DNA of 64,000 nucleotides from Rhizodiscina lignyota (lineage: Eukaryota). Each line of letters opens with the position of its first letter. Position 1 is the stretch's first letter. The translations under genes were made by a program, and so were the position numbers. A model generated the notes under the pieces. It was given only the letters and a program-made list of their open reading frames with translations, was not told the DNA's origin and searched no databases. Shown in pieces: positions 29,466 through 63,770 of the stretch. The stretch spans positions 62,001 through 126,000 of the forward strand of contig ML978140.1 of the NCBI GenBank assembly GCA_010015805.1, written 5' to 3'.

Positions 29466-32165
29466 ATGGACATCAGTCGCCTCATCCAAGGCGATTTGGA
29501 CATCCTGTAGATGCTGACATTGGGCCTCCGAAGAAGGGGAGAAGAAGAAGCCGAGATCGGCCCAAAGAGTTTAAGTGTGCTCACTCGGGATGTGGGAGGA
29601 GTTATTCAAGGGCTGAACATTTGTATCGTCATCAATTAAATCGTAAGTTTTCGAAGTTCCTCATTCGCCGTTTACTTGCACTATGTACTTGCTATGGTAT
29701 AACAATATGATCAAGGAAGGAGACACTGACTGATTAATGTCTAGATAACCCCAAACAGTTATATAAATGCGATTTCGCAGACTGCCAACGGTCATTTGTA
29801 CGCCAGGATTTGTGCGTGCGGCATAGAGAGCGACATATTACTCGTGGATCTCGACTTCTCCGCAAAGACAGCCCTGCGCAGACCCCGAACCCAATTGCAT
29901 CACCAGATGGCACTTCTCACAGACACTCCGATGAATCGATTGCGATACTTCAACAATGGCTTGACCTGCATTCAACAGCGCCGTACCCTTCGAAGACAGA
30001 CAAGGAAGAACTGGCCAACATATCTGGTCTTAAAGTCGCTCAGATTTCTCACTGGTTCCGAAACACCCGAAGTCGCTGGAGTCCACCCCTTCTCGATTGG
30101 CTTTCTTCACCGCCAGCTGATGAAGCGGCGTCACCAGAAGCCATTCAGATGGCACTAGACTCCTCTATTCCCATGCTAGGTAAGACCATCGCTAGTCACT
30201 TTATTCCTCAATGAATTGCCTTACTCGCCTTTCTTCTGCCACTGAGAAATCTAACTCTTTCTCCGGAATACAGAAACCTTTGGTCGAAGCCCACACGCAA
30301 GCCCGGCCAATAGCGTAAACTCGGCATTTTCCCAATGTTCAGATGAGGTATATGCGGGAGCACCAAGAAAAGGAAGAAGGAAATTCTCCATGCCGATGGA
30401 GAGGAGTCCAGCAAGTCGAAATCAAAGCCCACACTATGGCTTCTTCTCGGATATGCCAGGGTTAATACGGGAAAGCAGCAATTCCTGGTCAGGCTCAGGA
30501 GGTATTTCTCCCCAAGCTCAACATATTGTCCCAACCCCGCCTCTGGATATCCAGCTGCCTGGAACGATATCACCGAAACATCTCGGCATTGGTGAATATC
30601 TGTCATGCCACCTGCGACCTCCCAACCCAGGCCCATCAATTACAGAAAGGATGATTGACCTAAACACTGGATATTTTCCACTGCCTCCAGAATATAGCCC
30701 TGGCAAGTCGTCGGCATCCTACAAGTGTGACCACCCAGGGTGCACTGCTGCACCCTTCCAGACCCAGTATCTTCTGAAGTGAGTCTTGAAAACAACACTG
30801 AAATATCTTTCACTGGAGTAGTTTTGGAATGCTAATCTGCTACGCCAGCTCTCATGCGAACGTCCATTCTCAAAATCGCCCACATTACTGCCCTGTGCCC
30901 TGCAGTGCACGCAGTAAAGATGGTAAAGGATTCAAACGCAAGAACGACCTGATCCGCCATGGTCGATTTCACGAGTGTCCTGGTTATGTGTGCCCCTTTT
31001 GCCCAGATGGCAAACTTAAATATCCACGTGCGGTCAATCTGCAGCGACATGTCAGAGCTCATCACTTGGATATAGACCCAGACGATCTGCGGCTCAGGGA
31101 CGCTTTGAAACGAGTTCCCGTCACAGGGGAACGTGGGCACAGGAGTAGCGAGATTCACACTCCTCCAGAAAGTGCGCAAGTGCCATTTCCGTCCGACTCC
31201 AGAACGCTTGACGGTTCTTTGGGTGTATCTAATGCAGGTGTGATCCAAGCTGTATCGCAAAACATGTGTACAAAACATCCCGCATCAGACAAATAGACCA
31301 ACTGCAGAATCCTAAAAGCGACACTTTTCAAAACTGGTACGAGGCCTTTGACCCAGTGTATCCTGGTCCGGAAGGTTTACCATCAGCAGCCATCTTCTCA
31401 GAACCCCTCACTCCTTTCGACGATTTCTGTGATTCTCTCGATGATACTCGATTTTCACATCATATTATGAACAACGGTCTTTCGGAGTACCCATATAAAC
31501 ACTGCAATATGGATGAAGTATTTCGAACTTCTTCGCCACCACGGTTTTCTGCCAGTGGACCCGCTCCTGTCGAAAAGACTTCTCCAAATGAAGAGGCCAA
31601 CCCGAAGCCGAAGAATGAGCCATTGTACCAATGCACATTCTGTCATCAGAACCTGACATCAAAATCATGGAAGAGACACGAAGCTTCTATTCATCTGCCC
31701 CAATCCCAATGGGTTTGCCAGCTCAATGGCGGTTGCGTCCATTCACCCTCCAAATCAATGGACGGTTCCCCGATTGACTCAAAACACTGCGTCTTCTGTG
31801 GGATCCTCGATCCTGATAACGATCATTTCGAGTCAAATCACAGATCCGCTGAATGCGCCTTGAAGCCAGTCGCTGAACGAAGTTTCCAGCGCAAGGATCA
31901 CTTGAAACAGCATTGCCGCCTTGTTCATGAAGGCTTTGTTCCCAACAATCAAGTCCTGGAATCATGGCAGGTACAAGCGGATTACAGTCATCACCGCTGG
32001 TCTTGCGGTTTCTGTGGCGAGAAACTAGAGGGATGGGACGAGCGAGCGAAGCACATCAGAAAGCACTTTCAAGCCGGACTGACAATGGCTGACTGGAATT
32101 CGGAGAAATGCCTTGAGACCGATGCCGATGGGCTATTCAATGAGTTCACTGAATATCTCGAGTAG
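29466..32165 (+). CDS. Mosaic transcription factor: 2 C2H2 + TALE-type homeodomain + 3 C2H2 + C-terminal C2H2 cluster (start uncertain)
   Basis: In-phase GT-AG introns 29643-29744, 30180-30342, 30779-30848 and 31237-31296 join CAHSGCGRSYSRAEHLYRHQLNH, APYPSKTDKEELANISGL...WFRNTRSR, CTAAPFQTQYLLNSHANVH...CPFC...NLQRHVRAHH and YQCTFC...WKRHE...CGFCG. Confidence 0.8.
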
Positions 32166-42611: not shown

Positions 42612-43929
42612 GGTCTGCCATCTGCGCTGGCCACTTTCAGTTTTTCAGTTTTCTGTATCTCCGCTGATGAATTCGGAGTTTGCAAAAAGTGTTACACTTC
42701 AAAATGGGAACAATGATTATGGATACCAGTCTACAATGACATGTTTGATAGTTCCAGTTGCATGTCGTCGGTTGTGCGCTTGCGACCACGTGTGGATATA
42801 CGAGGACATGTGGTATTTGACTGAATGGGCATTTTGGTGGGGATGTGTTGGCTTAGATCAATGTATCTGATAAGTACAAGAGACCATAACATGTAGCACT
42901 CTCAAATGAGGACTTGCTTCCAATAGGTACATGTAAGAGAGGGTGACTGTGATTTCAGGTGTTCAGGTCCGACAAGTGTATTGTGGTAGAACACGACTGA
43001 AGGTATTGACGAAGGACTCAGGAGGGCACATGTGACGCATCATCTACCTCCAACCGACGGTCAGGCTGCCCCATTCACAATCACAAGTTATGATGCGGCC
43101 AAAGGTGTTAGCAAGTAGGCCGGTGTTAATACTGTCCAATGTGGAGATGACAACGGTGAGAAAGTACCAGGGTGGATATGTCCGCATAACTATTAAATGG
43201 CGGATTCAAGGAAGCAAAGGAAACACATCGTCTGTTAGAGATATACTCACCAAGAATCGCTCCTAAGTTGCTCGCACAGTGTAAACTCATAACGATTATG
43301 CGAAAAGAAAAGTGCGTACGCTCGCGACACCTCCGAAAAGAATATTAGTAGTTCTATCCAGATACAGCATAACACACTTTGAAGTAATTCATAGGCTACC
43401 TAATTCGGAAATAGCAGATTAGTACAAAGCGTCTGAACACTACGGCGATAGGTAGTTAGTTGTTTTGGTGGAAGGAAGTCATGTGACCAGAAGTGGTTGT
43501 GCAATCCAGGTCCACGGGCGCAATCGCTCGCTCGCTCGCGTGCTCCAGCCACAGCAAAACTTCAAACGCTGAAAGTATATAACCACTGGCTCGATCATGA
43601 AAGAAAGTAGATATTTACAAATGCAACGAGGTTAATTAAAATTCAATAGAAGCAGGATTCTTTTTGAAAAGGCTTGGTTCATAAGCGACGTGATAAGATG
43701 GACGAATTTTCACGATCACCTAAACTAGAATAAAACATAGGCCCTTTGTTACAAAATAGGGTAGGTATCCTAATCTTCTTATGGTTCTACTATAATCAAT
43801 TTGATATAGTGCAGTAATTTTAGCTAGCGCTAGGATATATTAGTTGAGCGGGCCGCCCCTGTTCGGGCATTGAAATGTTTGTCTGAATTTTTCGCTTTCC
43901 GTTTGTTCTTGTAATTTTCTGAGCGCACC

Positions 43930-43937
43930 TATATATA
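43930..43937 (+). promoter_or_regulatory. TATA element upstream of the tRNA-Ser gene
   Basis: TATATATA 33-40 nt upstream of tRNA position 1, a spacing compatible with TBP/TFIIIB binding. Confidence 0.5.
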
Positions 43938-43969
43938 CGTAAGCATGGAACAACCCCAACAATATCCTC

Positions 43970-44109
43970 GGCACTTTGGCGGAGTGTGAGTCTCAACAGA
44001 TCCTTTAAAATAGCTCATCAAGCTTACCCGATTACAGGGTTAACGCGCGGGCCTGCTATTCGTATAGCCCGTCTCTTCGGAGGCCAGGGTTCGAATCCCT
44101 GAGGTGTCG
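43970..44109 (+). tRNA. tRNA-Ser-GCT: tRNA-Ser(GCU) with two intervening sequences: 52 nt in the D-loop (43986-44037) and 7 nt after position 37 (44059-44065)
   Basis: Removing both inserts gives acceptor stem GGCACTT/AGGTGTC with discriminator G73, D-arm GCG-GAGTGGTTAA-CGC, anticodon arm CGGGC-CT GCT AA-GCCCG, long variable arm CTC-TTCG-GAG and T-arm CAGGG-TTCGAAT-CCCTG (perfect B box). Confidence 0.9.
43986..44037 (+). other. Spliceosomal-type (GT-AG) intron inside the tRNA D-loop
   Basis: 5' GTGAGT, branch-like GCTTAC at 44022-44027, 3' TACAG, 52 nt long; exact removal restores the conserved D-loop GAGT|GGTTAA. Confidence 0.8.
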
Positions 44110-44122
44110 CTTCCAGAAACTC

Positions 44123-44144
44123 TTTTTTTATTTTATTTTTTTTT
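44123..44144 (+). terminator. RNA polymerase III oligo-T terminator
   Basis: T7, T4 and T9 runs starting 14 nt after the tRNA discriminator base. Confidence 0.8.
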
Positions 44145-44525
44145 GGAAATTCTCCTTATTGATCAAGGAAGAGTTTGATAAAGCGGCTCTCTTAGGAGTT
44201 GGTGCATCAAACGATGGGTACGTTCATGTTATCTTACGTAATTATTTTTGTTTCCTAACCCAATATCTGGAATAAGAAGGAAAAAACCGCCCTCCTAAAT
44301 AATTTTCAGGTCTTGGATGAATGAAGAACAAGATGCGGCGTGCTGGGACCTGGGGATCAGTGACATTGGAGTGGGGTAAAATAAAAGCGGGGCCGTGACG
44401 CCCGTATTGCAATCGTGGGGCACCACTTATGCCTACCTTAATCATAACATCAGATGTAGTGCAGAGGTGCTCTTAGTTAAACTCACCTTCTCCTCTTTAT
44501 CCATGATCTCAACCCTCCATTCGCA

Positions 44526-46278
44526 ATGGCGAGACCCGGTTCCCGTGGCTCAATGGACAAGTGGCGCGTTGCGATCGCAATGCTTGCCATCAGCCTGATC
44601 TTCGCGGGGCTCTTTACCTATACGCAGCAGAATGGCTTTCATTTCACTTCACCATTCCATTCGTCTCCATTGAAAGAGGATGCTCAAGTAGACTTCTGGT
44701 GTCCTCTTGCCCCAATCCCTGGGCCACCATCGGATGGCCTTAAGGACAGCCGAGAGCTCACTGGCTCCGACATTCGGCAGCGACAAGTCGAAAGACTGAG
44801 TGCGGCGGTCAATGTCTCAACGCAGAGCTTTGAGGACAGTGGTGACGTTGAAACCGACACTAGATGGAGGGTTTTCGATGAATTGCATGAAGTCTTGAGG
44901 AAGCTCTTCCCATTAGTGTATGTGTCACATGCTTCCCCCGCCAACACTTGCAGTGCTAATTGGTTGTAGCCATGAGAACCTTCATGTAGAAAAGGTCAAC
45001 AAGTACGGTATTCTTTACACGTGGAAGGGCAGCACCGTCGAGCTCAAGCCCATCCTCTTTATGGCGCACCAAGACGTCGTACCGTCTGGACCAGCGGAAA
45101 AATGGACTTACGCTCCATTTCAAGCTCACTATGACGGACAATTCGTTTGGGGGAGAGGCGCATCAGATTGCAAAAATAACCTCATCGGCCTCCTATCAAC
45201 AGCTGAAGAACTACTCCGCCAGAGGTGGACACCCAAAAGAACAATCATTCTCGCCTTCGGATTTGACGAAGAAATCGGGGGCGAGAGAGGTGCTAAGCAC
45301 ATCGCCCAGCATCTAGAAAAGATTCTTGGAAAAGATTCCCTGGCAATGGTGCATGACGAAGGAGGGATGGGCTTCCAGGAGATGGGAGATATGGTGTATG
45401 CACTTCCCGCGATTGCGGAGAAAGGTTTTGTCGACATCGTCCTTCATGTGAAAGTCAAAGGCGGACACAGCTCCCGCCCTCCGCCTCACACAGGGATTGG
45501 CATAGCGAGCGAAATAGTCGTGGAGCTGGAGAAACACCCATTTGTTCCCCGATTAACCGCATCGAATCCACTGATGAATTTACTCCAATGTCAAGTTCGA
45601 TACTCTCCACGGGAAGTCGAGGATTGGCTACCAGATGCCCTGGCATCTAAATGGGACGAAGTCACGATTGGAAAGGATTTGGCGAGGTCACGAGGACCAG
45701 ACGTACGCTTCGCAATGCAAACATCTCAGGCTGTGACCATCTTCAACGGAGGGGAGAAGGACAATCAGCTTCCAGACAGTGCAAATATCACAATCAATTA
45801 CCGAATCGCTCCGCATGATTCGGTTGACAAGATCAGGAGAAGCGTCCTTGACGTAATATCACCCATTGCCAAGCAGCACGATCTTTCCATTGAAGAACTC
45901 GAACTTGATTCACAAGGGTCTCTCTTGCTTTCAACTCGCGACGATCTGGAACCGTCCCCTGTTTCGCCAACGGCTGACTCCAATGCCGTTTGGAAACTCT
46001 TTGGTGGCACTATACGTAGCGTCTTTGAGGACGTGGAAAGCTTTAAAGGGAAGACCATCGTTGCAGTTGGTGACATAATGCTCGGAAACACCGACACAGT
46101 ACACTACTGGAACTTGACGAGGAACATCTATCGATTCAGCCCAGCAAGAGCAGGCACTCGAATCAATGTGCACACTATTGATGAGCGGATCGATATGGAT
46201 GCCCATCTCGAAGGCATGAGGCTGTACTATGAACTCATGAGGAACTTTGACATACTGGAGGACAAGAATTTGAGTTGA
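44526..46278 (+). CDS. CPS1: M20 Gly-Xaa carboxypeptidase (carboxypeptidase S-like), 2 exons
   Basis: N-terminal TM anchor; MAHQDVV, WGRGASDCK, FGFDEE, DEGG, GGHSSRPP, GNTDT, HTIDERI; intron about 44917-44969. Confidence 0.9.
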
Positions 46279-47519: not shown

Positions 47520-49638
47520 CTAGTATCCTCTGAACTGCTCTCCATTTCCTTGACGATACTGCTCCGGAACCTCCGGCCACTTGTCTACTCCATCCAGAAT
47601 TGCAATGGCCATACCGCCCATAGCGTGGAGCTCAATATGACAATGGAAGAGCCACGGGCCAGGGTTCGTGACTTGGTACCGTAGCACACTCCAATAACCG
47701 CCCTCAGGAAGTGGCGAGAAAGGCGTCAGCCAGGTGTCTCTGTACCCTGGATCTTTGAAGTTGAAGGCGTCTGGCTGGGTGGCTATAGCTTCGGCGATGC
47801 TGGAATAGTTCCATATGCCTTGGCCGCTTCCTATGCGCCACATTTTGCTTCCATGCTTGTGCATTACGTGGGTAAAGGCGGCCAGGTCGCCAGGAAGGGT
47901 GGAGACTTGCAGAATCAGATCGACCCAAGATCCGTTCCTCGTGCGGATTACGAGGTTTTCGTCATACGTGTCGAGTGTCTGATTTGGGTTGAAGAGTAGT
48001 GGGTTGTCGACATCAAAATCTATTGGATACAGGTACTTTGTATTCATTGTGTACTTGAAGCTCGAATTGACTCTGCCCATCACAAGGAGGTACTCTTCAT
48101 CCGGGATTTTGGTGGGAGGCGCGTTGCACGGAAATGGTGGCATGTTGTCCGAAGTCAGGTTGTACGGTGTGTATCTCTCTACATCGATTGACGTAGGGAC
48201 ATCCAGACCACCGTAGGTGACGTACGGCGTGGCTTTCTTCGTGGAATGGCAGCCCTTGTATTGCAAGTTGGCAAATCCAGAGATCACCTGAGTCGAACCG
48301 GAATCGGGAAGTCGGATAGTGTACGTGCCACAAGGTTTATCGAGCCTCACCAATACTGAGAAGCGTTCTCCGGTAGAAATGGCAGCGGCCACGTATTTTC
48401 TCGGTTGGACCCAATGGCCGTCGACTTCGTAAACCCACATGGGATGCTCGTCGATTGAAAAGTAGATTTGTTTGGAAGCCATGGCCCCGATGAAGTTCAG
48501 GCTGACCCAGCGAGCGGTTGGATCTACTTCAATGGTTGCATTGCGGCCCGGCGAAGGAACACATCCAGACTGCAGATGTGGTGGTATTCGTTCCGGATGA
48601 CTGGAGTTTACCCAGGAGCCTTCAATTGCTGCGGTGAAGGGGAAACATCTATGGAGTAATCAGCATCGATGATACTGGGAGTGTCGGGAATTATAAATGG
48701 CTGACCCTTTGTCGGTGACATGGACGCCGAGCGGGAATGCCGACTCCTTGATGCCGGGTTGCGTTTGGTTGATCAAGAAGCTCAGAGGCGGGCAATATAC
48801 ACCGCCTATTCCGTTGGCCAGTATGCTGTCGACACAACTAGAGTATTGTAAATCGAAAGGTCGTAAGTGTTTTGAGCATCTGCTTACAAGACTAGCAACT
48901 GAGAGTCCACATTGACTTGCCAATACTCTTCAGATGTGAACCGCGACCAGTCGGATAAGACTACGAGCTCTGGATTTGCAGCAGCCCTTGCCATAGCCTC
49001 GATATCTTTTGGGCTATTACTGATGACCGACCACGGCGCAGGAGTATTCTCTTTCGGACTGCAACCCTCAGTTTCTGGCTATACTAAAAAAGCAGCACGA
49101 TTCCTACCGGATGAATATCCCACCATACAGCCCATCGACCAGCAGCATGCGTTGATGGGAATGATACCAGTGAGTTCCAGCCGGAGAAGCCGTGAAACGG
49201 TAGACAAAAGCCATCGATGGCTCGATGGGCCTCTGACTCAAACCCGGAACTCCGTCGGACCATGGAGTACCTGGTTGCCTACAGATTGTCAGATTTGTGA
49301 GCTTCCAGACCAGGATGGAGAGCTCACGCAAGTCCATGCCAGTGGATTGTGATGTTCTTCGGCATGTCATTGAGCACAGTAATCTATGTCACCGAATTCG
49401 TTAGCTGGTACTGCCAAGCATCAACGAACAGGCAGCGTACCTCGACTTCGTCGCCTTCGTCGAAGACGAGATTTGGTCCCGGAAATTGGCCATTGACAAA
49501 TATCATATCCCGGGACTGACCATTGGGACTGCCGTTCTCCCACGAGAGCCGTAACGTCTTGGCCACCTTCGAGGCGACAGTGAACGAAGAGGAAAGAAGA
49601 ACCAGCAAGTACATGAGGAGGCGGCCGTGGAAGTCCAT
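47520..49638 (-). CDS. Secreted multicopper oxidase/laccase (Abr2/Gip1-like pigment laccase), multi-exon
   Basis: Signal peptide; Cu motifs [53 protein letters not shown]. Confidence 0.92.
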
Positions 49639-50233
49639 GTCGGCGTTGGGGAAATTCAGCTCTTGCTAGAGACTTACTGGCATGTTCAACGATAGGAGAA
49701 TTTTGTATGAGCAAGGTGCAATTACGACTGTGACATGTTGCACGGGATAGGAGGTCAGGTCAAGTGTGGCATTTGTCTTTCGAGTTACACGGCTATCGAG
49801 TGAAAGAGCACTTTTTGCTTTCAGGAGAAGACGCAGTAGCTAATGATCATAGTTACAAAGAGGAAGGTGTAGTTGCATGCGAGAGATTACACGGCGGACT
49901 GTCGCACCCGAGATCGAAATAGCCTTGTACTCAGAGTGCAGGCCAAAATCTTGATCTGTTTAAGAGGTGTGACGGCGTCACACGCTGTACTTTCCTCTTT
50001 GTGAGAGATGTGAATAAATGAATGATGCCCTGATCGGGCGATAAGAACATGACGAGCTGAAAGGAGCCCATGCGCCGCATGGGAGGCGCCTTGCTCTACA
50101 AGCATGTGCAAGCGGCACCTAATGAGACTAGCAGTTGTAACAATAAAATTCGCTACCCCTTAATTGGAATTATAGAAGTCAGTTAATAGCCACTGTTCCG
50201 CGAAATCACACCTCCGCTGTGCTCGGTGTGACC

Positions 50234-51102
50234 TCAAAGCACATATGGTACCAGCGTATATGGGGTCTTCTGCTTGTAATTGGTCCACATGTTGTCATAC
50301 TATATGGTATTAGCAAACGACACAGACCTCTTCAGGAACATGTGCTTACCCTCTTGGAGCAATACTCATCTAATGCTGGGATTGCGCGAGATGAGAAATC
50401 GTAAAGGAAGAAAACACCGGTCAGCGTTGCCGAAAGCATTCCTGAAGTTGCCATTGCACCAGACGCACGCCAAAGAGTGTAACCGCTGTAGTTTGGATGG
50501 CGGACCAAGGAGAAGAGTCCTCCAGTAAAAGGTTTGCCTTTGTTCCTGACATCGGCCTTGAACTGTCTCCGCTGGATCTCGCATTGCCATTCTGCTCCAA
50601 TGCCGAGGAGAAAGAGGGCAACTCCGACGAGCAAATACAAATTTGCAAGCGTCTCGCCTCTTGGCGACGACGCCGCCGATGTTGTTGCGCAGAGGAAGAG
50701 CAAGTTGTTGAGTGTATTCCAAAAGGTGTTGAACGCCGCGACAATGACGGCGCCGGACACTGTCCAAGCTTCTTCAGCGACACAAAGGACGAACCAGATG
50801 TGCTTTATCGTGGTGATACAAGTCATGCTGAGTAAAACGGCTCTGTATGCCGAAAGGTTGAGCGCATCAATGGGTGCGATGCCGGCGTGCAGCGTCGGCG
50901 GAGATGGCCTGATTGTGCCGCCGAAGAGTTTGATGACGCCTGTTCCGTAGAGCTGCGACAAAATGCTGTATTGGATCAAGCAGTCGAGGACTCTCAAGCC
51001 TAGGAACAGAGTGGTGTTGAGAGGGGACGAGGACTTCTTCCCTCGCGGAACGAAGTCTTTGGCACGAAGCTCAGTTTGAGAGAGAGCGTCTGGACGAGCC
51101 AT
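50234..51102 (-). CDS. DUF1295 / steroid-5-alpha-reductase-like membrane protein, 2 exons
   Basis: EIQRRQFKAD...GKPFTGGLFSLVRHPNYSG; intron after YCSKR; last exon YDNMWTNYKQKTPYTLVPYVL-stop at 50234. Confidence 0.85.
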
Positions 51103-51537
51103 GGTTCAAATCAGCGTAGCAATGTTTCTAGGAGATGAGAAAATGAAGTCTTGACGTTATTAAAGTCATTCGAAAAGTAAGTCCGACATTTTCAATCAAG
51201 AACCTACAACGCTGGTAGTCGAGGATTACGACGCACAACGCGGGCTACGATCTCGTATCGCTCAAAGGCTCAGGTCAATGCTTGCGCCTTCCCGGTGATG
51301 AAGCTAAAAGATGTGTGTTGCGAGATTTACTAGCGAAGGTCATACCGCAGCAAGCCGACTGCTTCACGTAGCACGTGAGGTTGGCGCAGATTGATGATCA
51401 TGATTGTGCGAGGCGCCTTCCGAATCTCTCGGGCGCACTCGGGGCCGACCGCCTGCTTTCCTTTGTATCACCACGCCGACCAACTCGACCCACAACTTGT
51501 TGAACAGCCGCGAGTGTCGAGAAGTGCTGCCATAGCC

Positions 51538-53281
51538 ATGATGGAGGCTTCAGAGACGAAGAACGAGTCTGGAGACACGGTTTCACACGAGCTGAAAGAC
51601 CATCTGCCCGCAGTTGATGCTGCTACGCCTTCCAAACCCACGGCCGGCGACAGTAAACAGAGCAAGCCGGAAGAGGAGCCAGATGCAGAAGACGAGGCAA
51701 AATACCCAGGCCCTGCTGCTGTTGCTCTGCTCATGCTGGCCATCTCCTGCGCAATGTTCCTGGTCTCTTTGGTGCGCTGCTTTTGAGGGCCCTTCAAGAT
51801 CGCCCAGAGTACTGACACGCCTCCAGGACCGCACTATCCTCGCGACTGCCATTCCACGAATCACAGACCAGTTCCACTCTTTTGAAGATATCGCTTGGTA
51901 CGCCAGCGCGTATGCGTTGACGGGTTGCGCGATGCAGCTCCCCCTCGGTCGCTTCTACAGCTTCTACCCTCCAAAACTGGTCTTCATCTCGCTCGTCGCC
52001 CTGTTCGTCGTAGGCTCCGCAATTTGCGCGGGCGCATTCAGCTCCAAGACGATCATTATCGGACGCGCTGTTCAAGGCATCGGCTGCGCCGGTGTCTTTT
52101 CGGGTTCCATGATACTTTTGGTGGGCAACGTACCTCTTCGTAGGCGTCCAATGTTCATGGGCCTGCTCATGGCCATCATGAGTATCTCTGCCGTCATCGG
52201 TCCGCTGATTGGGGGAGCATTAACAACCAACGCCAGCTGGCGATGGTGCTTCATCATTAACATTCCAATTGGACTGGTCACCATCATCGTTCTCTTCTTC
52301 ACCGCAAAAGCTCTTCCAGGAAAGGAGCAGGAAAAGGGAATTGTTGAGAAGCTGAAGCACCTTGATCCGCTCGGGGAAGCACTACTCATCCCAGCCATAA
52401 TATGTCTTGTCCTTGCACTTCAATGGGGCGGCTCGCAGTACTCCTGGGCGAGTTGGCGCATCATCCTTCTCCTCGTGCTCAGCGTACTCCTTGGGGTTGG
52501 CTTCGCTGTCGTCCAGGTTCGCATGCCGGATACGGCGACCATCTCACCACGAGTCATCAGCCAGCGTACGGTGGCAGCCTGCTTCTTTTGTTCAACTTGC
52601 ACAGGTGGCGCCATGATGGTTGTCGTCTACTGGATCCCTATTTGGCTCCAAGCCATTAAGGGTGTAGGTCCAACCAAATCAGGAGAGATGATGATTCCTT
52701 TACTTCTCTCGCAGTCTATAGGATCCATACTCAGTGGTGTGCTGGTATCACAACTAGTCGGGTATGCGTCGCCCTTCATGTTCCTCAGTTCGACCATGAT
52801 GGCGGTGGGCGCTGGCCTTCTCTCCACCTTCAAGGTGACATCGGGTGCTCGCGAGTGGATCGGCTACCAAGTTCTCTTCGGATTGGGACTCGGCTTGGGA
52901 ATGCAGCAGGCATCCACCGCCGTCCAGCCGGTGCTTAAGAAAGCCGATCTCCCCTCGGCCTTCTCACTCATCTTCTTCGGTATGCAGCTTGGCGGTTCGA
53001 TCTGCGTGTGTGTCGGTCAAAACGTCCTCAACCAACAGCTTATCAGGAATTTGAGGAAAGCACACATACCTGGTCTTGACCCAAAGACAATCCTTGACAC
53101 AGGAGCGACTGACCTCCGCAACCTCGCCCGTACTCCCGTCGAGATGGCGCGGCTTCTCTTGGCCTACAATGACTCTCTGACGAGTGTGTTCTACGTTGCA
53201 GCAGCGGTGGCAGCCATCTCCATGATTGGTGTTGTCCTTGTGGAATGGAGAAGCGTAAAGGGACTGAAGCCAGGTCATTGA
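51538..53281 (+). CDS. MFS 14-TM efflux transporter (DHA2; AurT/AflT/CFP-like), 2 exons
   Basis: MFLVSL|DRTILATAIPRITDQFHS, WYASAY, GPLIGGALT...WRWCFIINIPIG, WIGYQVLFG, VEWRSVK; intron 51772-51826. Confidence 0.93.
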
Positions 53282-53695
53282 TAACAGCGAGATACTGTGT
53301 ACATAGTACGGCGTGGGCAGAGATTTGCGGGGTTCATCATCCTGGCGGCTCGGCAGAGTCCACAGTGGAGACTCCGTACGGTAGCGTGGGGGCGCCGCCG
53401 TGGGTTCACCTTTATCCTGACATCTGTCCTGCTACAATTGCCTCATTTCGCCCTTTCGCGAACATTTTAATTGCAGTGGTCTACCGGTCTCTGAACCAAA
53501 TGGCATTTTGTTTGTAGCTATTACCCGCAAAACACACCAATCTCATCTCAAACGGAGTGCGAAAACAGAACGCGAGGCCGAAAAACTTCGGTGTAACCTC
53601 ACATGATGCCGCATTGGTTCATGGACGTGGCCGACGAGGCGATGATTGTTACTGAGGAATTATTACGAATGCCCTTGAAGCGTCCCCTTCGATGA

Positions 53696-54286
53696 TCATA
53701 GCTCTCCACAGAAGCTACGGTAAAGCTGGGTATTGCCATCTGCCGGTACCGCATCGACAGCTTTCGCCGTTCTCTTCTCGACCCCACCAACGAACTTCCC
53801 ATCGCGCAAAACCTCGGTGAACCATCCAATCGTCATCCTGCCGGCAATATCAACGCTCAATTCCGCTCAAGTTCATGATGGAGTCACTTACTGCGACGCT
53901 TTCGTGTCAGCAAATTTCTCATGATCCGGACCAACTTCGCTCCTGAAGTACGGATCGGCTTTCATGCGAACGAAACACGCGATGTCCGGGAAGACGATCT
54001 GAATACACGAATCATAGCGCGCGACGTTCGCGAACTGAGGATCGTAGATCTCCTTCATCAAATCTCTGGTTTGGTCTGTGTTGTGCGTCTGAAATTCTTT
54101 AGCGAGCTTCAACGTCTCATCTTTCGGCCTCACCATGGTCCATCGACGGAATCCATATTTCTCCATCATGCCGCTAACGAGAGGAGCGTGGACGTTCAGC
54201 ATGTAATTTCGATAATCTTCGTCCTTCATTCCTGGCCTCTTGAAGCCCAGAATTGTGAGGCAAAGCACTTCGCGTTGAGTCTCCAT
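53696..54286 (-). CDS. EthD-domain protein (AurZ-like dehydratase candidate), 3 exons
   Basis: GFKRPGM...YMLNVHAPLV, YDSCIQIVFPDI, DPYF...PDHEKFADTKASQ|MTIGW; divergent from the PKS. Confidence 0.85.
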
Positions 54287-54883
54287 AATCTGTTGTTTGT
54301 CTGGTGCAAGGCTCTCAGAGATTGAATGTCAGAAAGTGTGGCCTTGATTGTAGAGCCGCAAGCAGAAGACGAAGTGTAAGTTGGCCGCTCAACTGCCTCT
54401 ATCTATTATTAGAATCCTACAGTCCTCGTGCGACGATTATCGCACTCGTTATACTTCTTATGCTATCTCAGACTTCTTCGTCCACCGCCGTTCCAATGGC
54501 CCACACACCAGTCCCTTAACATGACATATAACTGATAATGCACGTTGCTGACTGCTACAGTTCCACGGTGCTATCAATCGAGCTGAACCCAGGCCCTCCA
54601 AGATCTGGGCCCTTGTGATGCGGAGCATGTCTGCTGGGTTCTCATATCACGGTGCTACGCCGCACACCGTAGCACAGCACAAAGCTCGATTCGATCTTTG
54701 CCAGAATACGGTGATTCCAAGCTCGAAGCGAAATTGGCCAGTGTATCCAACCTCATAGATTATGAACCAGTTGTCTCTCACATGGCTTCGATCGATCTAG
54801 CTTTGTGTCCTACTCACCAAGGGCTCTGTCATACATAAGGACGATGTGGGCGTCAAGCTTTGCTACCAAGAGAGCGGCACACC

Positions 54884-54957
54884 GCTTGTTGGTGCCAAGG
54901 TCCACTATCGAGAAATTTCACAGCTGCTTGTTGACGCCAAGGTCCACTATCAAAGAA
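54884..54957. repeat. Imperfect direct repeat (about 31 bp, 42-bp period) in the PKS/EthD promoter
   Basis: GCTTGTTGGTGCCAAGGTCCACTATCGAGAA versus GCTTGTTGACGCCAAGGTCCACTATCAAAGAA. Confidence 0.8.
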
Positions 54958-55488
54958 CTGGCACAAGGCCTGCCGGCGAGGCTTAACTACGGCAGCTGAA
55001 TGATTGCAGCGCCTCAGTGTTCCCATCTACGGCTTTCAGCTGCCCACACAACCATTCAATATGTCGCGGCATCGCGGAAGAGACATGCTCTCCATCTCGT
55101 ATTCGAACGATGAAGCTGAGACCATTGGACATGAGCTGGAAGATGCTCCAAGCCGACTTCAGCATTGGTCCCGTCTTGAAGTAGCACTATCGTGGTAGTC
55201 TGGCTTCTCAGCTCGGCATGTCCCGCCTCTGCCGTAAATGGCACAAGTAGAGCTTCACTTTGCATATGCCCAAAGCCAGCTTGACTTTCGCATACTACTT
55301 CCGGATTCTGCCAATCAATTTTGGTTGTCGTGATGGGCAATCTCTGACTATTTATTGACAACGACCCATCCGCAATCAAGATCGACGACGAATATCCACT
55401 GCTAAGCTCCACAACCAAGCTCCGCAGACTTACTCTTCAAAACGCTACAATTCCCTCTTATACAAATCCCTTGGGACCCAATGCGGGA

Positions 55489-58400
55489 ATGGAAGAGAAA
55501 CTCCTTACCATCGTCTTTGGCGATCAGTCCGTTGCTTTTGATCCCGGACTACGATGTCATCTGGCTAATAAAGCCAATCCGACCTTGATGACCTTCTTCA
55601 ATGATGCCTATCTCGCTTTAAAATCAGAGATTGCTCGACTGCCACCGAGCCAACGGGCGGGTTTTCCAAATTCTTCCAACCTTACGGAGCTCTTGGTATC
55701 ATATCGTAAGGGGGTTCATTGCGCATTGGACAGCTCTTTGGTTTGCTTGCATCAACTTGCCTCTTTCATCGCGTATGTGCCATGGTCCTCTCACAATACT
55801 AGAGCTGTACCTTGCTAATCGGTTACAGTTACTTCAGTGAGACGCAACAGTATCCTACGCCGTCCACAACCTGCTTAGTCGGGTCATGTGTTGGCCTATT
55901 AGCTGCTACAGCTGTGAGCTGCAGTAAAAGCGTGCTCGACCTCGTTTCTCTAGTGCCAAATGTCCTTGCCATCGCCTTCCGTCTTGGGTACCTGGTGCAA
56001 GAGAAGAGCAAGTCTGTCGCAATATCAGTCTCGGGAGTCGAATCTTGGTCCTCAGTGGTTGTTGGCCTGACCATGGAGACTGCATCACAACTCCTAGCCG
56101 ACTACCACAAAGTGGTGATCCTTCCAGGCCCTTCACGTCTCTTTATCAGTGCCGTGAGTAACGGAGGTGTCACTGTCTCCGGGCCTCCAGCATTGTTAAG
56201 ACAGTTTCTCTCATCGGATGCTGCACTCAAGTCAGCCAGCGTACCGATCCAGGGCCTGTTCCATGCACCCCACCTCTACACTTCTACCGATGTCGACCTC
56301 CTGTTGAATGCCATCGATACTACGCTCCTGCATCGAGAGCCCTTAATTCCAGTCTTTTCCAATGACAATGGGGCCCCAATTATCGCAGATCGCGGCAGAG
56401 CGCTTCTGCGAGCCGCTCTTTCGGAAATCTTGTGCAAACAATTGCGATGGGACATCATGCTTGGGGGAATTGCTCTCAGTGTACGAGAACGCTTCACCTC
56501 ATGCCATCAAATTCTTCCTTTCGCCTCAGGAAGCATACAGAGTCTCGCTGCTGCAGTGAGTGGGCCGGGGCTTGCTAATCTCGAGATCTTGACGACTTCG
56601 GATTCACAGCTAGACTTTGGACGCGGCCGACTTGAAGACCGGTCAAACAGATCTAAAATTGCCATCATTGGATTTTCCGGTAGATATCCACATGCCCAAG
56701 ATAATGAAGCCTTTTGGCAGCTTCTTGTTGACGGCCTCGACGTTCATCAAGAGATTCCGAAAGACCGATTCGATCCCTCGCTGTATTTCGACTCTACTTG
56801 CAAGAGGAAGAACACTAGTGGCGTGACAAAGGGTTGCTTCGTCCTCAATCCGGGTTTCTTCGATGCTCGGTTCTTCAACATGTCCCCAAGGGAAGCGGAG
56901 CAGTCCGATCCTGCGCAGAGACTGGCATTGATGACCGCATACGAAGCAATCGAGATGGCGGGTCTGGTACCAGATGCTTCTCCTTCCACACAACGCGATC
57001 GTGTTGGCGTCTTCTACGGTACTACAAGCGACGATTGGCGAGAGGTCAACAGTGGACAGAATGTCGATACGTACTTCATTCCAGGTATGGGTACCTTAAC
57101 ATTGCATTAGCCATAACTAACACTACGCTAGGAGGTAATCGCGCCTTCATTCCCGGTCGCATCAACTACCACTTTCGTTTCAGCGGGCCAAGCTACAGTG
57201 TCGACACAGCTTGCTCCTCAAGTCTAGCGGCGATCCACCTGGCTTGCAACTCCTTGTGGAGAGGCGACTGCGACTCGGTTATTGCTGGCGGAACTAATAT
57301 CATGACCAATCCAGACAATTTTGCGGGTCTCGATAGGGGGCATTTCCTTTCGCGTACGGGAAATTGCAACACATTCGATGATGCTGCGGATGGGTACTGC
57401 AGGTCTGATTGCGTCGGCACAGTCATCTTGAAACGAATGGAGGATGCGCAAGCAGATGGCGACCCTATATTTGGGACCATCCTCGGGGCGTATACAAATC
57501 ACTCTGCCGAGTCTGTTTCGATCACTCGGCCACACACTGGCGCGCAGGAGGCGATATTCAAAAAGATACTCGGCTCAGCTGGCGTCCATCAGTCTGAGGT
57601 TAGTTATGTCGAAATGCACGGCACCGGAACCCAACACGGCGATGCTGCAGAAATGAAGTCCGTTCTCAACGTGTTTGCTCCAGAAGGTGCCAGTGCTCGG
57701 AGCCAGGCGCTGCATCTCGGGTCTGCCAAGGCAAACATCGGTCATGCCGAATCGTCTTCAGGCGTTGCATCTCTGGTCAAGGTCCTACTTATGATGGAAA
57801 ATAATACGATCCCCCCTCACGTTGGAATCAAAACGAAGATCAACCGCAACTTTCCCACCGACCTTACCGAGCGCAATGTGCACATCGCGCTAAAGCCGAC
57901 CGAGTGGGTACGGTCCACTGACAAGTCGCACGGGCGAAGAGCCTTTGTCAACAACTTTAGTGCGGCAGGGGGGAACTCGTCCCTGTTAGTCGAAGATGCA
58001 CCGCAGATGCAAGCTCCAAGTGAAGACCCGAGGCCGTTACATATGGTTGCATTGTCTGCAAAAAGCTCAGCGTCACTCAAAAAGAGCATTTGCGCGCTCC
58101 ACTCATTCCTCGAAGAGCATCCAGATCTGTCACTCGGCTCTCTTTCCTTCACGACCACCGCGCGACGCATTCATCACAACTTCCGCGTCATGGTTAACGG
58201 CGAAGACATTGACAGCATCAAAGATGCACTTTGGAGTCTTCGTACCCAAGAGAAGTTCCTGTGCATCCCTCCAAGCTCAGTTCAGGTGGGGTTCTGCTTC
58301 ACTGGTCAAGGCTCCCAGTACCTTGGGATGGGCCGACAACTTCTCGAGATGCCTCAGTTCCGGTCCAGCATTTTGCAGTACGAAGAGATTATCCGGGCAC

Positions 58401-61400
58401 AAGGGTTTCAGCCTATTCTTCCTCTGCTCGACGCAACTTTCCCACATGCCATGGCAGAACGTCCTCCTCTAATGGTGCAGCTGGCACTTACTTGCTTACA
58501 AATGGCGCTGGGAAAGCTGTGGAAATCGCTTGGAGTCAGTCCCAACGTGGTGGTTGGCCACAGTCTTGGAGAGTACGCCGCTATGAACATCGCTGGTGCC
58601 TTGTCGGACGTGGATACAATCTACCTCGTCGGTACTAGAGCAAGGCTTTTACAGCAGTATTGCTCCACTGGCACGCATGCGATGCTAGCTGTCAAGGCAC
58701 CTTTGCAGGATCTCGCTGTCCATCTCTCGGTTTTCCAGACACTTGACATTGCTTGCATCAATGGCCCCGAGGAGACTGTCATTGCTGGCGTCGAGGCCGA
58801 AATCCAAAGGCTCGCCAATTCCCTCGCGGCTATTTCGATCAAGGTCACAAAGCTGAATGTTCAATTTGCTTTCCATTCCGGGCAGGTCGAACCGATGCTG
58901 GAAGCCTTCGAGCGTGCCAGCAAGTCGATCAAGTTCACCGACCCGGACATCCCAATTCTATCACCACTTCTCGGTCAGGTTATCCACAAGGCTGTGGATC
59001 TTGGTCCAGCAAGCCTCTATTGGAGTCGCCACTGCAGGGAAACGGTAAACTTCCTTGACGCTTTGCAACATGGAAGTGCAGCTGGAACGATTTCAAACAA
59101 AATGACTTGGGTAGAGATTGGTCCCCACCCCATTTGCTCGGCTATGTTGAAATCTACTCTGGGCTCCCGCACTAAAGCATTTCCAAGTTTGCGTCGCAAT
59201 GAAGAGAGTTGGCCGGTTCTTGTCTCGACGTTGACGGCTCTGTTCGAGAATGGCGTTCCTATCGACTGGAATGAGTATCACCACGGATTCAGAGCGAATC
59301 TACGAGTTCTAAGGTTGCCGGCATACCAATGGGACTTGAAGAACTACTGGATTGACTATGTGCACAACTGGTGTTTGACCAAGGGAGACATGCCCCCCAA
59401 ACATTTGGCCGCTGAGCAAGTCCCCAAGCGCTTCACCGCATCCGTCCAAAAGATCATCGAAACAGAATCCAACAGCAACACAGCTTCTGTGCTCGCCGAG
59501 TCTGATCTAACAGATCCTGATTTCCAGATGTTACTTGAAGGACACAAGGTCAATGGTCAGCCTCTGTGTACGTCATCGGCGTATGCGGACATGGCACTGA
59601 CCCTCTTCAACTACCTGCTCGCCCGATCGCCTCTCGCAAAGAGCAATGAGATCGGTGTTGAAGTTCAACGGATGGTTGTCGACAAGCCGTTGACTTTTAA
59701 GCGAACCTCATCGCAAGTCATCAGGATGACCGCATCTGCGAATTGGCCAGCAAAGACGGCAACTTTCAGCGTCTGGAGCATTTCAAATGACAGAAAGGAA
59801 ACTGTGGGTCACGCCAAGTGTCACGGGTCTTTCAGCGCACGAAATGACTGGCTGGCCGAGTGGAAGCGGAGCCAAAGTTTCATCAGATCGAAGATCGAAC
59901 ACTTACGGAATGCGGCACATGAGACCTCCAGCTCTACTAACGTCATCAAAACCGGCATGTTCTACAAACTCTTTAGCTCTTTGGTCGAATATCACGACAA
60001 TTTCAAGGGCTATCGCGAGGCAGTCCTCCGGTCCGCGGACCATGAAGCTACTGGCATAGTCAAATTCACCACTACAGCGGATGAAGCTAGCAAGTGGTAC
60101 TGCAGCCCGTATTGGATTGACAGTCTCGGTCAGATTACAGGATTCACGATGAATGCGAACGATGCCGTTGATTCGAAGAACCAGGTCTTTATAAATCATG
60201 GGTGGGAGAGGATGCGCATTGCTACACCATTCTCTGACCAGACGACCTACCAGACCTACGTCAAGATGCAAAAGAGAGACCAACGCTCGTACGCTGGTGA
60301 CGTTTACATCTTAGACCAGGATGATATTGTTGCAGTCTATGAAGGCGTCACATTCTCCAGCATGCCGAGAACGGTGCTGGATACCGTGTTGCCTAATCCG
60401 TTGTCGACTAAACCTATCAAAGCTGCACCTGCATCGCGTCCCATCATTCAAAACCCTCTTGAACTTCCACAGCGACAATCGGAAGCTCGCAGTCTTGATG
60501 TTGAGAAGGTCAAAGCGATTGTCGCCCAAGAGATTGGCGTCCAAGTCTCTGAACTTGATGACGATGAAGACTTGACGAACTTGGGCATGGATTCACTTCT
60601 CTCGTTAACGATATCAGACAGAATCTACGACGACGTCGGAATCAAGGTTGACTCCGGCAGTCTGCTAGGGAATATGTCAATAACAAAGCTCCATTCACAG
60701 CTCACCTCGCCTTCAGGCTCAACGGACGCAGTCGCCACTCGGCCATCCACAAATTCTACGCCCGAATCCACTCGTTCGCCTACAATACCAACGCCTTTCT
60801 CGACCCCCGGCCATTCTGAACCGAATCCATCTAGTCATCAAGTCTTGATTTCTGTTGCGAGGATTCTGGCCGAGGAGATTGGCGTGCAACCGGATGATCT
60901 TCAGGATGATATGGAGCTCTCAAGCTTTGGCTTAGACTCACTCATGTCTCTGAGCATCTTGGGTAGACTGAAGGAAGAGGCTATGATCGAGTTGGATGGA
61001 GACTTTCTGCTTACTCATCCCACTTTTGGAGCGATCCGAGAATCGTTAACCCCTTCAGGTACCGGAAAATCAACTCGTAAGCATATGATACCGCATATAC
61101 GCCGAAACGACTAATAAGACTCCAGCCTCAGCCAATATCCAGGTACCACAGACGGCTGTGGTAACGAGGCCTCAAGAACCCAAGATCCCCCCGGCTACCT
61201 CCGTTCTGCTTCATGGGAAACCAAAGTCTGCTTCGAAGATCCTATGGCTGTTCCCTGACGGGTCGGGTCTCGCCACATCTTACCTCATGCTGCCTGAGAT
61301 TGACACAGATACGGCAGTCTATGGAGTGAACAGTCCGTTCATCAAGCGCGCCGACGAGATGAAGTGCAATTTTCGGGAGCTAACAGCTGTGTACCTCAAG

Positions 61401-61967
61401 GAGATCCGCCGTCGACAACCACATGGCCCTTACTTCTTGGGCGGATGGTCGGCAGGTGGCATCAGCGCGTACGACGCTGCGCAGAGTCTTATTACCGCCG
61501 GTGAATCCGTGGGCCGTCTTATTCTCGTCGATAGTCCTAACCCTATCGGCCTTGAGAAGCTTCCACCGAGGTTGTACCACGCCTTCGACAAGGCGAATAT
61601 CTTTGGCGAAGAAGGGAAGAAACCGCCGTCCTGGCTCTTGCCGCACTTCCTAGCCTTCATTGACGTGCTGGACACATACGACCCTATTCCGTTCCAGCCG
61701 CAGCAATCGCCGCAAACATGCATCATTTGGGCGAAGGACGGAGTCGACCCAGATGAAACGGTGATTGAAGTTCGACCCGATGACCCGAGGGAGATGAAAT
61801 GGCTTCTAAAGGATCGCAAAGAATTAGGCCCGAACGGATGGGGCCACCTTCTCGGGTGTGAGAATATCGCTATTGACGTGCTGGACAATGCGAATCACTT
61901 CACTATGATGAAAGGAGCCGCGGCTAGCATCCTGAGTAAGCTTATTGGGAGGGCTATGCGTACTTGA
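55489..61967 (+). CDS. Non-reducing iterative type I PKS, SAT-KS-AT-PT-ACP-ACP-TE/CLC
   Basis: SAT FGDQ and GSCVG; KS DTACSSS, EMHGTGT, KANIGH; AT GHSLG and AFHS; PT EGHKVNG; ACPs GMDSL and GLDSL; TE LFPDGSG, GWSAGG, NHFTMM; introns 55773-55828, 57085-57131, 61077-61125. Confidence 0.97.
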
Positions 61968-62555
61968 CATTCTACCGCTCCATATCTTTCTACATTGCTC
62001 TGCGTTGTTCGGCGTTTTGCCTTCCGTAGAATTGCAGGCTTCCATTCCTGGTAGAGTCTCACTGAGGACCCGCGGTCAATATATTCAATATATTAGGTTG
62101 AATCTTTTAACGATGATCCAGATGCGGATTGAATATAAGCAAACTTCATAAGAGGGCGGAAGGTATTGTTACAGTGTTTGGATATTGGTGGGGGCCCTCG
62201 TCAGCTAAATGATACTGGATCGTGCACGGTGCTTCTACTTGGATGGGCCTTCTGCGGCTCGACGTACGCAGACCTCTGGTAAATATATCTTGGCAAGTGT
62301 GGCTGGGTGTCTCTGTGAGATTTGGAAGGGAGAGAGGCACATCTGACAGCACCTCGATGCTGCGTTCAGATGGAGTTGATTATTAGCTTATTGAAGATTT
62401 TTGGAATTGATTTCATCTGTCATCTGATATTGTAGACCATTATGAGTAGAGACTCTTTTGACCATACCACATCTTATCAGCTACGTCACCTTCGAGCCAC
62501 TGAATGGATACTTCAAACTTGACCACTTGCAGTTCACCGATTTTCAGTTCGACAC

Positions 62556-63770
62556 TCAGGACTTGACGGGTTTGAGCTCGTCGAGATCCTTCGTATCTAG
62601 GAGCCGTTTTGCACCACCGAGACTGGCCTTGACCACTTCCCTCATGCGAGTCTTCATTTCCTCCTCGTAAGCCGCCACAGCTTCAATGCCGACACCCTTG
62701 TTCTCCAGCTCGCGGCACAAAGTCGCAGCGTCCTGCAGAGCACTTGCCGCTCCCGCAGCACCAGTTGGCGGCATGACATGGGCCGCGTCGCCGATAATGG
62801 TGACCTTCGATGCCTTCCAGTCAGGGATGTCGGGATGAGTCGTGAGGACGTGGATGGTCGACGTAAGCGTGGGATCAGCATACTTGAACAGCGAGGTCAA
62901 CTTCAACGTCCAGTCTGCCGTAAGCTTCGTCGCCAACCCGAGTGCCTCTTCACCGTGGGAGCGGTGGAAGGAGCCAAGCGGTATGCCATGTTGAGAAAGC
63001 AGATTATGGGGCATCATGAGGACCCAGTAGACATAGTCCACAGGCAGCTCGAACGGTGCGTCAGCGGCTCTGTCTCGATTGAAGTGAATCTTCTCGAGGA
63101 GCAAGTGAAGCGGTGACGGTTGCGATCTGTCTGTTACCAAGCTCATCTTGCGCAAGGCGTCCTCTGAGAATGCCCTGATAAAGTCGTCGGTCATGGGTGT
63201 CTTGCTGTAGATGAGGCAACCTTCAGTGTCTAGCAGCGCGATCTGCGGGAAGACCTGGCTTCTCACTCGAGATCGTGCACCTTCAGCTCCGACGAGGAGA
63301 CTTCCGCGCACCGTCGATCCGTCGGTGAAGTGAGAGACCACGCCATCTGGAGTCACCTCGCTCTTTTGGAACTGCTTGCCCCAGCTCACGCGATTTTGCT
63401 CGAGTCCGGTCAACAGTACGTTTCGCAGAACTGATCGATCGACGGTGTAGGCGTGGCCAGGTGGTCGATGGGCTCCGAAGACCTCTCGAGGTGCAAGTGA
63501 CTCTCCTGTTCCAGGATCAATGACTCCTGGGGCGCCAACCTCCACATCTGCGCAAGTCTGCTCGAAGAGGGTGTACAACTCAGTTGAGAGGCATTGCTTC
63601 AAGGCGTCTGCGCCGTCGGAAGCGAGGCGGACGCGGTAGCCTTGTGGGCGGAACGTCACGTCGGTATCTTTCTCGAAGACTTGGAAAGGGATATTGCGCT
63701 TCTTGAGGCCATTTGCGAGGCAGAGGCCACTGATGCCGGCGCCGATGATGAGGACGGGCAGTTCAGACAT
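62556..63770 (-). CDS. FAD-dependent monooxygenase (group A aromatic hydroxylase type)
   Basis: IIGAGISG, FEKD, RPQGYRV, LVGAEGARSRVR, IIGDAAHVMPPTGAAGAASALQDA; single exon convergent on the PKS. Confidence 0.92.
   Translation of the reverse strand: MSELPVLIIGAGISGLCLANGLKKRNIPFQVFEKDTDVTFRPQGYRVRLASDGADALKQCLSTELYTLFEQTCADVEVGAPGVIDPGTGESLAPREVFGAHRPPGHAYTVDRSVLRNVLLTGLEQNRVSWGKQFQKSEVTPDGVVSHFTDGSTVRGSLLVGAEGARSRVRSQVFPQIALLDTEGCLIYSKTPMTDDFIRAFSEDALRKMSLVTDRSQPSPLHLLLEKIHFNRDRAADAPFELPVDYVYWVLMMPHNLLSQHGIPLGSFHRSHGEEALGLATKLTADWTLKLTSLFKYADPTLTSTIHVLTTHPDIPDWKASKVTIIGDAAHVMPPTGAAGAASALQDAATLCRELENKGVGIEAVAAYEEEMKTRMREVVKASLGGAKRLLDTKDLDELKPVKS

Follow-up and report, generated by a model that had tools for sequence, protein, structure and literature searches.

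A tRNA-Ser(GCU) gene with an intron-like GT-AG insert in its D-loop in the Dothideomycete fungus Rhizodiscina lignyota

Introns with mRNA-type signals are already known in genes for non-coding RNAs. [quoted passage not shown] 2016, as summarised in the available part of PMC5855946). Spliceosomal introns are also given there for the U1, U2 and U5 snRNA genes of Rhodotorula hasegawae and for ascomycete rDNA (Takahashi 1993, 1996; Bhattacharya 2000, cited in PMC5855946). An initial annotation of this DNA had also named fungal U6, other snRNAs and ascomycete rRNA as hosts of such introns. Among the host classes named in that part of the review, tRNA does not occur.

For tRNA introns a separate machinery is described. 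Textbooks and reviews keep two nuclear systems apart, the spliceosome for mRNA introns and a protein endonuclease for tRNA, and tRNA splicing is stated to be independent of the spliceosome (PMC10275265, PMC13149111). Canonical eukaryotic tRNA introns are 6-133 nt long, and non-canonical ones are given just for nucleomorphs (Kawach 2005) and Cyanidioschyzon merolae (Soma 2007, 2013) in the available part of a tRNA-intron review (PMC4090602), a part in which the spliceosome is not mentioned. The initial annotation had known of no described spliceosomal intron in a tRNA, and a full-text literature search likewise found no published spliceosomal intron in a tRNA gene.

Introner-like elements are reportedly present in Dothideomycetes, according to work by van der Burgt in 2012 and by Collemare in 2015. 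Intron turnover has been described in Zymoseptoria (available part of PMC5647799).

Judged by its sequence, the locus described here is best explained as a genuine tRNA-Ser(GCU) gene in an intergenic stretch of a Dothideomycete genome, carrying what appears to be an acquired U2-type GT-AG-like intron in its D-loop. The sequence arrangement at 43970-44109 is firm; function is putative.

Gene structure and boundaries of the insert

All coordinates refer to the window, which is the whole 64-kb stretch of DNA that was analysed. The locus is intergenic and is flanked by an MFS transporter gene and an M20 peptidase gene, and the interval from 43345 to 44480 is without any stop-to-stop ORF of at least 90 aa. 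Inspection of the sequence together with ARAGORN (option -i) placed a tRNA-Ser(GCU) gene at 43970-44109 with two interruptions, a 52-nt insert in the D-loop and a 7-nt intron at position 37/38. The gene is made up of the following parts:

43970..43985, + strand: tRNA exon 1, nt 1-16, comprising the 5' strands of acceptor and D stem and the first part of the D-loop (ARAGORN after in-silico removal of the insert)
43986..44037, + strand: D-loop insert, 52 nt, intron-like, between tRNA nt 16 and 17 (ARAGORN and deletion scan)
44038..44058, + strand: exon 2, with G18 G19, the remaining D-loop and the D-stem 3' strand, followed by the 5' side of the anticodon stem and its loop as far as A37, anticodon GCT
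44059..44065, + strand: canonical tRNA intron, 7 nt, TTCGTAT, at position 37/38 (ARAGORN -i)
44066..44109, + strand: exon 3, with the anticodon stem 3' strand, the long variable arm, the T arm, the acceptor 3' strand and the discriminator G

Standard scanners were suspected at the outset of missing such a gene, and they did. In the intact 64-kb window no tRNA was called by ARAGORN (with or without intron search) or by Rfam at gathering scores, and in E-value mode the Rfam tRNA model matched the T-arm of the intact gene alone, at 14.3 bits against a gathering score of 29. Following in-silico removal of 43986-44037, a tRNA-Ser(gct) with a 7-nt intron was called by ARAGORN -i. Since both programs pass over the intact gene, annotations could wrongly report a missing isoacceptor.

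The complete serine cloverleaf with all stems pairing, as first described, was recovered both in this ARAGORN call and in the minimum-energy fold after insert removal. Pairs were present at 7/7 positions of the acceptor stem (two of them G-U), 3/3 of the D stem, 5/5 of the anticodon stem, 5/5 of the T stem and 3/3 of the variable arm, and the tRNA body thus retains all 23 stem pairs along with its conserved loop bases. The 81 nt that are left after both excisions have a cloverleaf with long variable arm as their minimum-energy structure (−32.6 kcal/mol). The sequence marks of tRNA-Ser(GCU), which are the long variable arm, GCU, the discriminator G, G18 G19 and the T-loop bases, were found together only after both introns had been removed in silico. 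The 7-nt intron follows the 37/38 position rule for tRNA-endonuclease introns, and in the arm fold its 5' site lies in the hairpin loop and its 3' site in a bulge.

In order to place the boundaries of the insert, 357 trial deletions around the site were compared. ARAGORN was permissive, calling Ser(gct) for 143 of them, so that its call alone cannot fix the boundaries; these are taken as fixed by comparison with uninterrupted relatives. The metagenome pattern that supplied such relatives allowed a 25-nt gap and matched at least 120 loci, and 71 of the 120 listed were bacterial class-I tRNAs. Among the matches listed, the D-arm core GGCGGAGTGGTTAACGCG was uninterrupted in 12 of 120 loci, and the eukaryote-like Ser(GCU) genes with this uninterrupted core included one without an intron (L028) and one with a 20-nt intron at 37/38 (L048). 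Just two of the 357 deletions, 43986+52 and 43987+52, recreated the conserved D-arm TGGCGGAGTGGTTAACGCG, the latter being the 1-nt-shifted equivalent of the former with the same product. GT-AG excision had been expected to restore the D-arm with G18 G19, and deletion 43986+52 rebuilds the D-arm of the uninterrupted relatives exactly. This deletion is also one of just 3 GT..AG deletions among the 357 tried, and only 4 of the 63,948 + strand 52-mers in the window start with GTRNGT and end with YAG. The agreement between the boundaries demanded by the tRNA and those demanded by the spliceosome therefore lies far beyond chance.

No second copy of the insert was found in the 64-kb window. By BLAST the insert was not similar to the neighbouring 52-nt intron at 44918-44969, and it had no likeness to other introns in the window. 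With respect to the features of introner-like elements, one insert copy was present in the 64-kb window, and its fold was just −3.0 kcal/mol. A mobile element or repeat as the nature of the insert is unsupported within the window, where no other copy exists.

Support for the locus was drawn from an independent k-mer assembly of DNA-like contigs (k = 31, run X1), in which a 78-kb contig runs through the gene with 0 differences at a word depth of 152.8, run X1 possibly being the source data of the window's own assembly. No second X1 contig matched at a likeness of at least 80%, in a weak test from which 44118-44200 was left out as a repeat. The X1 contig is unbroken through the 44-nt 3' half, which in this weak test suggests that an identical intact twin gene does not exist. 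Ser(gct) genes with a D-loop insert numbered 0/10 among the 120 metagenome loci listed, in a weak search, and a split-pattern scan of a prokaryote-only contig collection, where little was expected, gave 0 matches. AGY accounts for 83 of 264 serine codons in two genes mapped within the window, and so some Ser(GCU) gene must work.

Transcription signals and local mRNA introns

The following putative transcription signals accompany the gene:

43930..43937, + strand: TATA-like TATATATA, 40 to 33 nt upstream of tRNA position 1 (sequence)
43977..43987, + strand: A-box-like TGGCGGAGTGT of the unspliced gene, its last two bases being the first two of the insert
44088..44098, + strand: B box GGTTCGAATCC in the T arm, the sole match in the window
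44123..44129, + strand: T7 run beginning 14 nt after the discriminator and probably acting as Pol III terminator, with T4 and T9 runs after it

In some fungi, Pol III genes make use of TATA elements upstream; no TATA-like element was found upstream of the metagenome homologues L028 and L048. The unspliced A box was thought to stay near consensus, and it matches 10/11 positions of the A-box consensus TRGCNNAGTGG, a match that survives thanks to the G at the start of the intron. Both the B box and the oligo-T terminator of the initial annotation are present, at 44088-44098 and as the T7 run at 44123, respectively, and the B box count alone is not chance-proof, since shuffles averaged 1.03 matches against 1 in the window. 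An insert free of runs of four or more T, also described at the start, is what the sequence provides: no T run of at least 4 was found within it or elsewhere in the precursor, and the T7 run begins only at 44123. Such a run is present in 4/14 local introns.

Local intron candidates were collected by an ORF-joining screen, which gave 45 candidates from 24 donors. Two public Rhizodiscina lignyota proteins, a P-type ATPase (P0001) and a PksP/Alb1-type polyketide synthase (P0121), were mapped to the window, and exons in the window encode both with every residue identical, which assigns the window to this Dothideomycete or to a strain nearly identical with it. The 28 candidates that were compared comprised the shortest per donor, one additional acceptor paired with donor 30779 and three introns that the mapped protein models supplied. 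Two further introns of the ATPase model (19552-19680 and 20080-20115) were dropped, being coding according to three homologues. The reference set consisted of the 15 of 28 candidates carrying CTRAY 4-40 nt from the 3' end and is hence partly selected on the motif at issue. The 13 candidates without CTRAY, most of which lie within long ORFs and are probably false, were left out. Two of the 15 reference introns (61059 and 61077) have a common 3' end.

These 15 CTRAY-bearing candidates have the appearance of genuine introns, with lengths of 36-106 nt (median 55), a range within which the 52-nt insert falls. Each starts with GT and a variable tail (GTATGT in four, GTAAGC in three and GTGAGT in one), and the ends are CAG (9/15) or TAG (6/15). 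The branch A lies 10-20 nt from the end and, in 10/15, at 10 or 11 nt. Within the insert, the corresponding candidate signals are as follows:

43986..43991, + strand: 5' splice-site hexamer GTGAGT, which fits GTRNGT and also starts the local intron candidate 30779-30848
44023..44027, + strand: branch-like CTTAC, with A44026 11 nt from the last base of the insert
44035..44037, + strand: 3' splice site CAG, the first AG downstream of A44026

The sequence reads as the initial annotation had it, with 52 nt inserted after tRNA position 16, GTGAGT at the start, GCTTAC at 44022-44027 and TACAG at the end, and the GTGAGT donor that it had cited at 30779 does belong to an ORF-joining intron candidate. 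Its broader statement that the insert resembles the local mRNA introns held with one correction: length, donor, acceptor and branch spacing agree, but CTTAC departs from the local CTRAY, since its branch A is preceded by T and that of the 15 reference introns by A or G. The insert is without any CTRAY, and its best motifs, CTTAC and CTCAT, are each one base off. CTRAY is found by chance in 9.9% of random 52-mers and in 15/15 reference introns, which were picked for it. CTTAC fits the looser yUnAy branch rule. On the exon side, the bases AGT before the donor do not extend the pairing with U1; the last exon base of local introns is loose as well (G in 7/14, T in 1/14), and the first intron of the neighbouring gene is likewise 52 nt long and likewise follows AGT/GT. 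It is very probable that the insert either is a spliceosomal-type intron or descends from one.

Possible fates of the precursor

The interpretation first offered for the locus, in which the insert is removed by the spliceosome from a Pol III precursor to leave a functional tRNA, is partly supported, the predictions that could be tested on sequence having come out as expected. Removal and function of this kind are regarded as almost evenly poised, with the balance tipping slightly to doubt. Under this reading the tRNA-Ser(GCU) would need two unrelated machineries in turn, the spliceosome and then the tRNA endonuclease with ligase, a requirement that is entertained just as tentatively.

The inferred course of transcription and of each RNA processing step, in order, would begin with Pol III. 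Relying on the B box, the T7 terminator and an A box that is nearly intact, it would start about 10 nt upstream of the gene and run to the T7, yielding a precursor of roughly 150-170 nt. The acceptor strands of exon 1 and exon 3 could pair already in this precursor, as they do in its predicted fold, and so hold the exons together. The nuclear spliceosome would then recognise GUGAGU, branch at A44026, remove the 52-nt intron and join U16 to G17. Removal would restore AGU/GGUUAA with G18 G19, the predicted junction lying at 43985/44038 (GGCGGAGU joined to GGUUAACG). The D-arm and the tRNA elbow would form only after this spliceosomal step, and end processing (RNase P, RNase Z), export, and removal of the 7-nt 37/38 intron by endonuclease and ligase would follow. 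The tRNA endonuclease makes contact with the D-arm and uses the mature domain to gauge where to cut (available part of PMC4090602). Given that the D-arm would form only once the spliceosome had acted, RNase P and RNase Z, export and the endonuclease should come afterwards.

Hints of function are provided by the flawless tRNA body, the A box at 10/11, the absence of an internal T run of at least 4, the AGY usage and the inferred lack of an identical twin. Hints in the other direction come from the off-consensus branch motif, from Pol III RNA that is stated to stay unspliced in human cells and from the consideration that a young pseudogene would be equally intact. For Alu RNA that Pol III makes in human cells, spliceosomal splicing is stated not to occur (available part of bioRxiv 10.64898/2026.09.26.754642).

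These data would be explained almost equally well by a gene that a recent intron gain has killed as by one that is spliced and functional. A spliceosomal-type intron, or intron-like filler, would recently have entered one redundant Ser(GCU) gene, either by reverse splicing and recombination or by DNA-level intron gain as reported in Dothideomycetes. The Pol III transcripts would then stay unspliced, misfold and be degraded, and other Ser(GCU) genes would supply the tRNA. This account is quite possible and is held with some doubt. Origin alone would explain the intron-like signals equally well, introner-like elements are reportedly found in the same fungal class, and the branch motif lies off the local consensus. 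The intactness of all 23 stem pairs and of the conserved loop bases speaks against a dead gene, yet an unblemished tRNA body would be expected if the event were young. The insert was present in no relative among those searched (0/10 Ser(gct), 120 metagenome loci listed; weak searches), and Pol III transcripts are stated to be unspliced in human cells (available part of bioRxiv 10.64898/2026.09.26.754642). Further points against it are that no identical intact twin was visible (78-kb k-mer contig unbroken, no other match at 80% or more, in a weak test), that no T run of at least 4 has arisen and that no further copy of the insert lies in the 64-kb window. As to the usual marks of a pseudogene, the tRNA body is intact apart from the insert, and paralogues of different sequence may exist. 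Even a dead gene would offer a clean, datable case of intron gain outside the Pol II genes, and would do so in a fungal class noted for recent gains.

Spliceosomal splicing is normally coupled to Pol II, and the insert might accordingly be removed from a Pol II transcript. The TATA-like TATATATA, 40-33 nt upstream, would drive a capped non-coding precursor, from which RNase P and RNase Z would then release the tRNA. A Pol II-transcribed tRNA-Sec has been reported in trypanosomes (available part of PMC2943599). Such a route is unlikely here: the gene has a full set of Pol III signals (A box at 10/11, B box, T7 terminator), Pol II would not be halted by the T-rich runs that follow it, and neither a host ORF nor a host exon is apparent.

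Other explanations are decidedly unlikely and have no specific support. The insert could be kept in a tRNA-like RNA with a giant D-loop and another role, but contacts of G18 G19 with the T-loop hold the tRNA elbow together and a 52-nt D-loop would abolish them. A sequencing or assembly artefact is opposed by the X1 k-mer assembly, which reproduces the locus with 0 differences at a depth of 152.8, X1 possibly being the source of the window.

Least probable, and very unlikely, is a non-canonical tRNA intron at position 16/17 that the tRNA splicing endonuclease would excise, on the model of the nucleomorph and C. merolae introns in the D arm: D- and T-arm non-canonical introns exist and are excised in those eukaryotes, and the enzyme is already required for the 37/38 intron of this gene, but the junctions form no bulge-helix-bulge (BHB; central helix 2/4 pairs, outer 1/3, inner 1/3, in both registers giving the same product), the whole precursor folds no better than shuffles (z = −0.82), the insert measures 52 nt against 3-24 nt for nucleomorph insertions (available part of PMC4090602), and the GTGAGT..CAG ends, of a kind found in 4/63,948 52-mers, would be coincidence, so that with no BHB and an insert fold of −3.0 kcal/mol this route is left without a substrate.

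Relation to described introns

If the insert is indeed removed by the spliceosome, this would be the first tRNA known as a spliceosome substrate, and a tRNA requiring both systems would break the division between spliceosome and endonuclease. The list of intron-bearing non-coding RNAs (U6, U1, U2, U5, rRNA) would be extended to the most abundant Pol III class, and spliceosomal introns could colonise abundant Pol III transcripts that are never in the spliceosome active site. Genes of this kind would also be invisible to tRNAscan-type annotation, and isoacceptors reported missing in fungal or algal genomes may therefore be hidden in this way.

Introner-like elements of Dothideomycetes share with this locus a fungal class with ongoing spliceosomal intron gain. 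They are longer than the 52-nt insert, which differs further in being without a second copy in the window and without a stable fold (−3.0 kcal/mol).

The tRNA genes of nucleomorphs and C. merolae resemble the present one in having an intron outside 37/38, the D arm included, and two or more introns in a single gene. Insertions in nucleomorphs span 3-24 nt, and BHB motifs are regarded as the deciding feature in C. merolae (available part of PMC4090602), whereas the tRNA-Ser(GCU) insert is 52 nt long and has no BHB, GT-AG ends and a branch-like motif. In the snRNA and rDNA cases, GT-AG introns likewise occur in non-mRNA genes, including non-Pol II transcripts (rRNA); the host RNAs there belong to other classes, none of them a tRNA.

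Fungal U6 introns compare with the insert in that a short Pol III gene of a structured non-coding RNA carries mRNA-type intron signals. They have a canonical 5' splice site, branch site and 3' splice site in otherwise unconserved sequence. Removal is established for the U6 intron of fission yeast, whereas for the tRNA insert it is predicted. Unlike U6, the tRNA host lies outside the spliceosome active site, its branch motif is one base off, and the tRNA endonuclease would also be needed. Since a tRNA is not in the active site, an explanation by proximity to reverse splicing is not applicable. The locus also bears on a question raised in the available part of the U6 review, namely which of abundance, structure and closeness to the active site determines the places at which non-coding RNAs receive new introns (PMC5855946).

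Gene models around the tRNA-Ser(GCU) gene

The following protein-coding genes were delineated in the window:
19456-23013, + strand, P-type ATPase gene (public protein model P0001)
47520-48659, - strand, multicopper oxidase
51596-53281, + strand, MFS transporter
55489-61964, + strand, PksP/Alb1-type non-reducing polyketide synthase, with three introns
62556-63794, - strand, FAD monooxygenase

The last four belong to what is likely a pigment gene cluster (47520-63794). In the public P0001 model, introns were placed at 19552-19680 (129 nt) and 20080-20115 (36 nt). Both segments are in frame and stop-free, their encoded residues were matched in alignment by three homologues (P0003, P0005, and P0021), and from sequence they look like annotation errors. 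The true intron of this gene lies near 20002-20052 and contains a stop codon.

Introns of the tRNA gene, its relatives and its neighbor

The following features were compared with the tRNA-Ser(GCU) gene and its D-loop insert:
L048:285-385, uninterrupted tRNA-Ser(GCU) relative on a 79-kb metagenome contig
44918-44969, + strand, intron 1 of the gene for an M20 peptidase directly downstream of the tRNA

The canonical 37/38 intron is 7 nt in the window, compared with 20 nt in the L048 relative, and is absent from the metagenome homologue L028; relatives thus differ both in whether they carry this intron and in how long it is. The M20 peptidase intron is exactly 52 nt, equal in length to the tRNA insert, and shares its exon flank (AGT|GT). 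Its branch, CTAAT, follows the consensus, and no sequence likeness was found between this intron and the insert.

Element upstream of the tRNA gene

43930-43937, + strand, TATATATA, 40-33 nt upstream of the tRNA

No similar element was present upstream in the homologues L028 and L048. The element could hint at Pol II use at this gene. Alternatively, TATATATA could function with Pol III, as such elements do in fission yeast.
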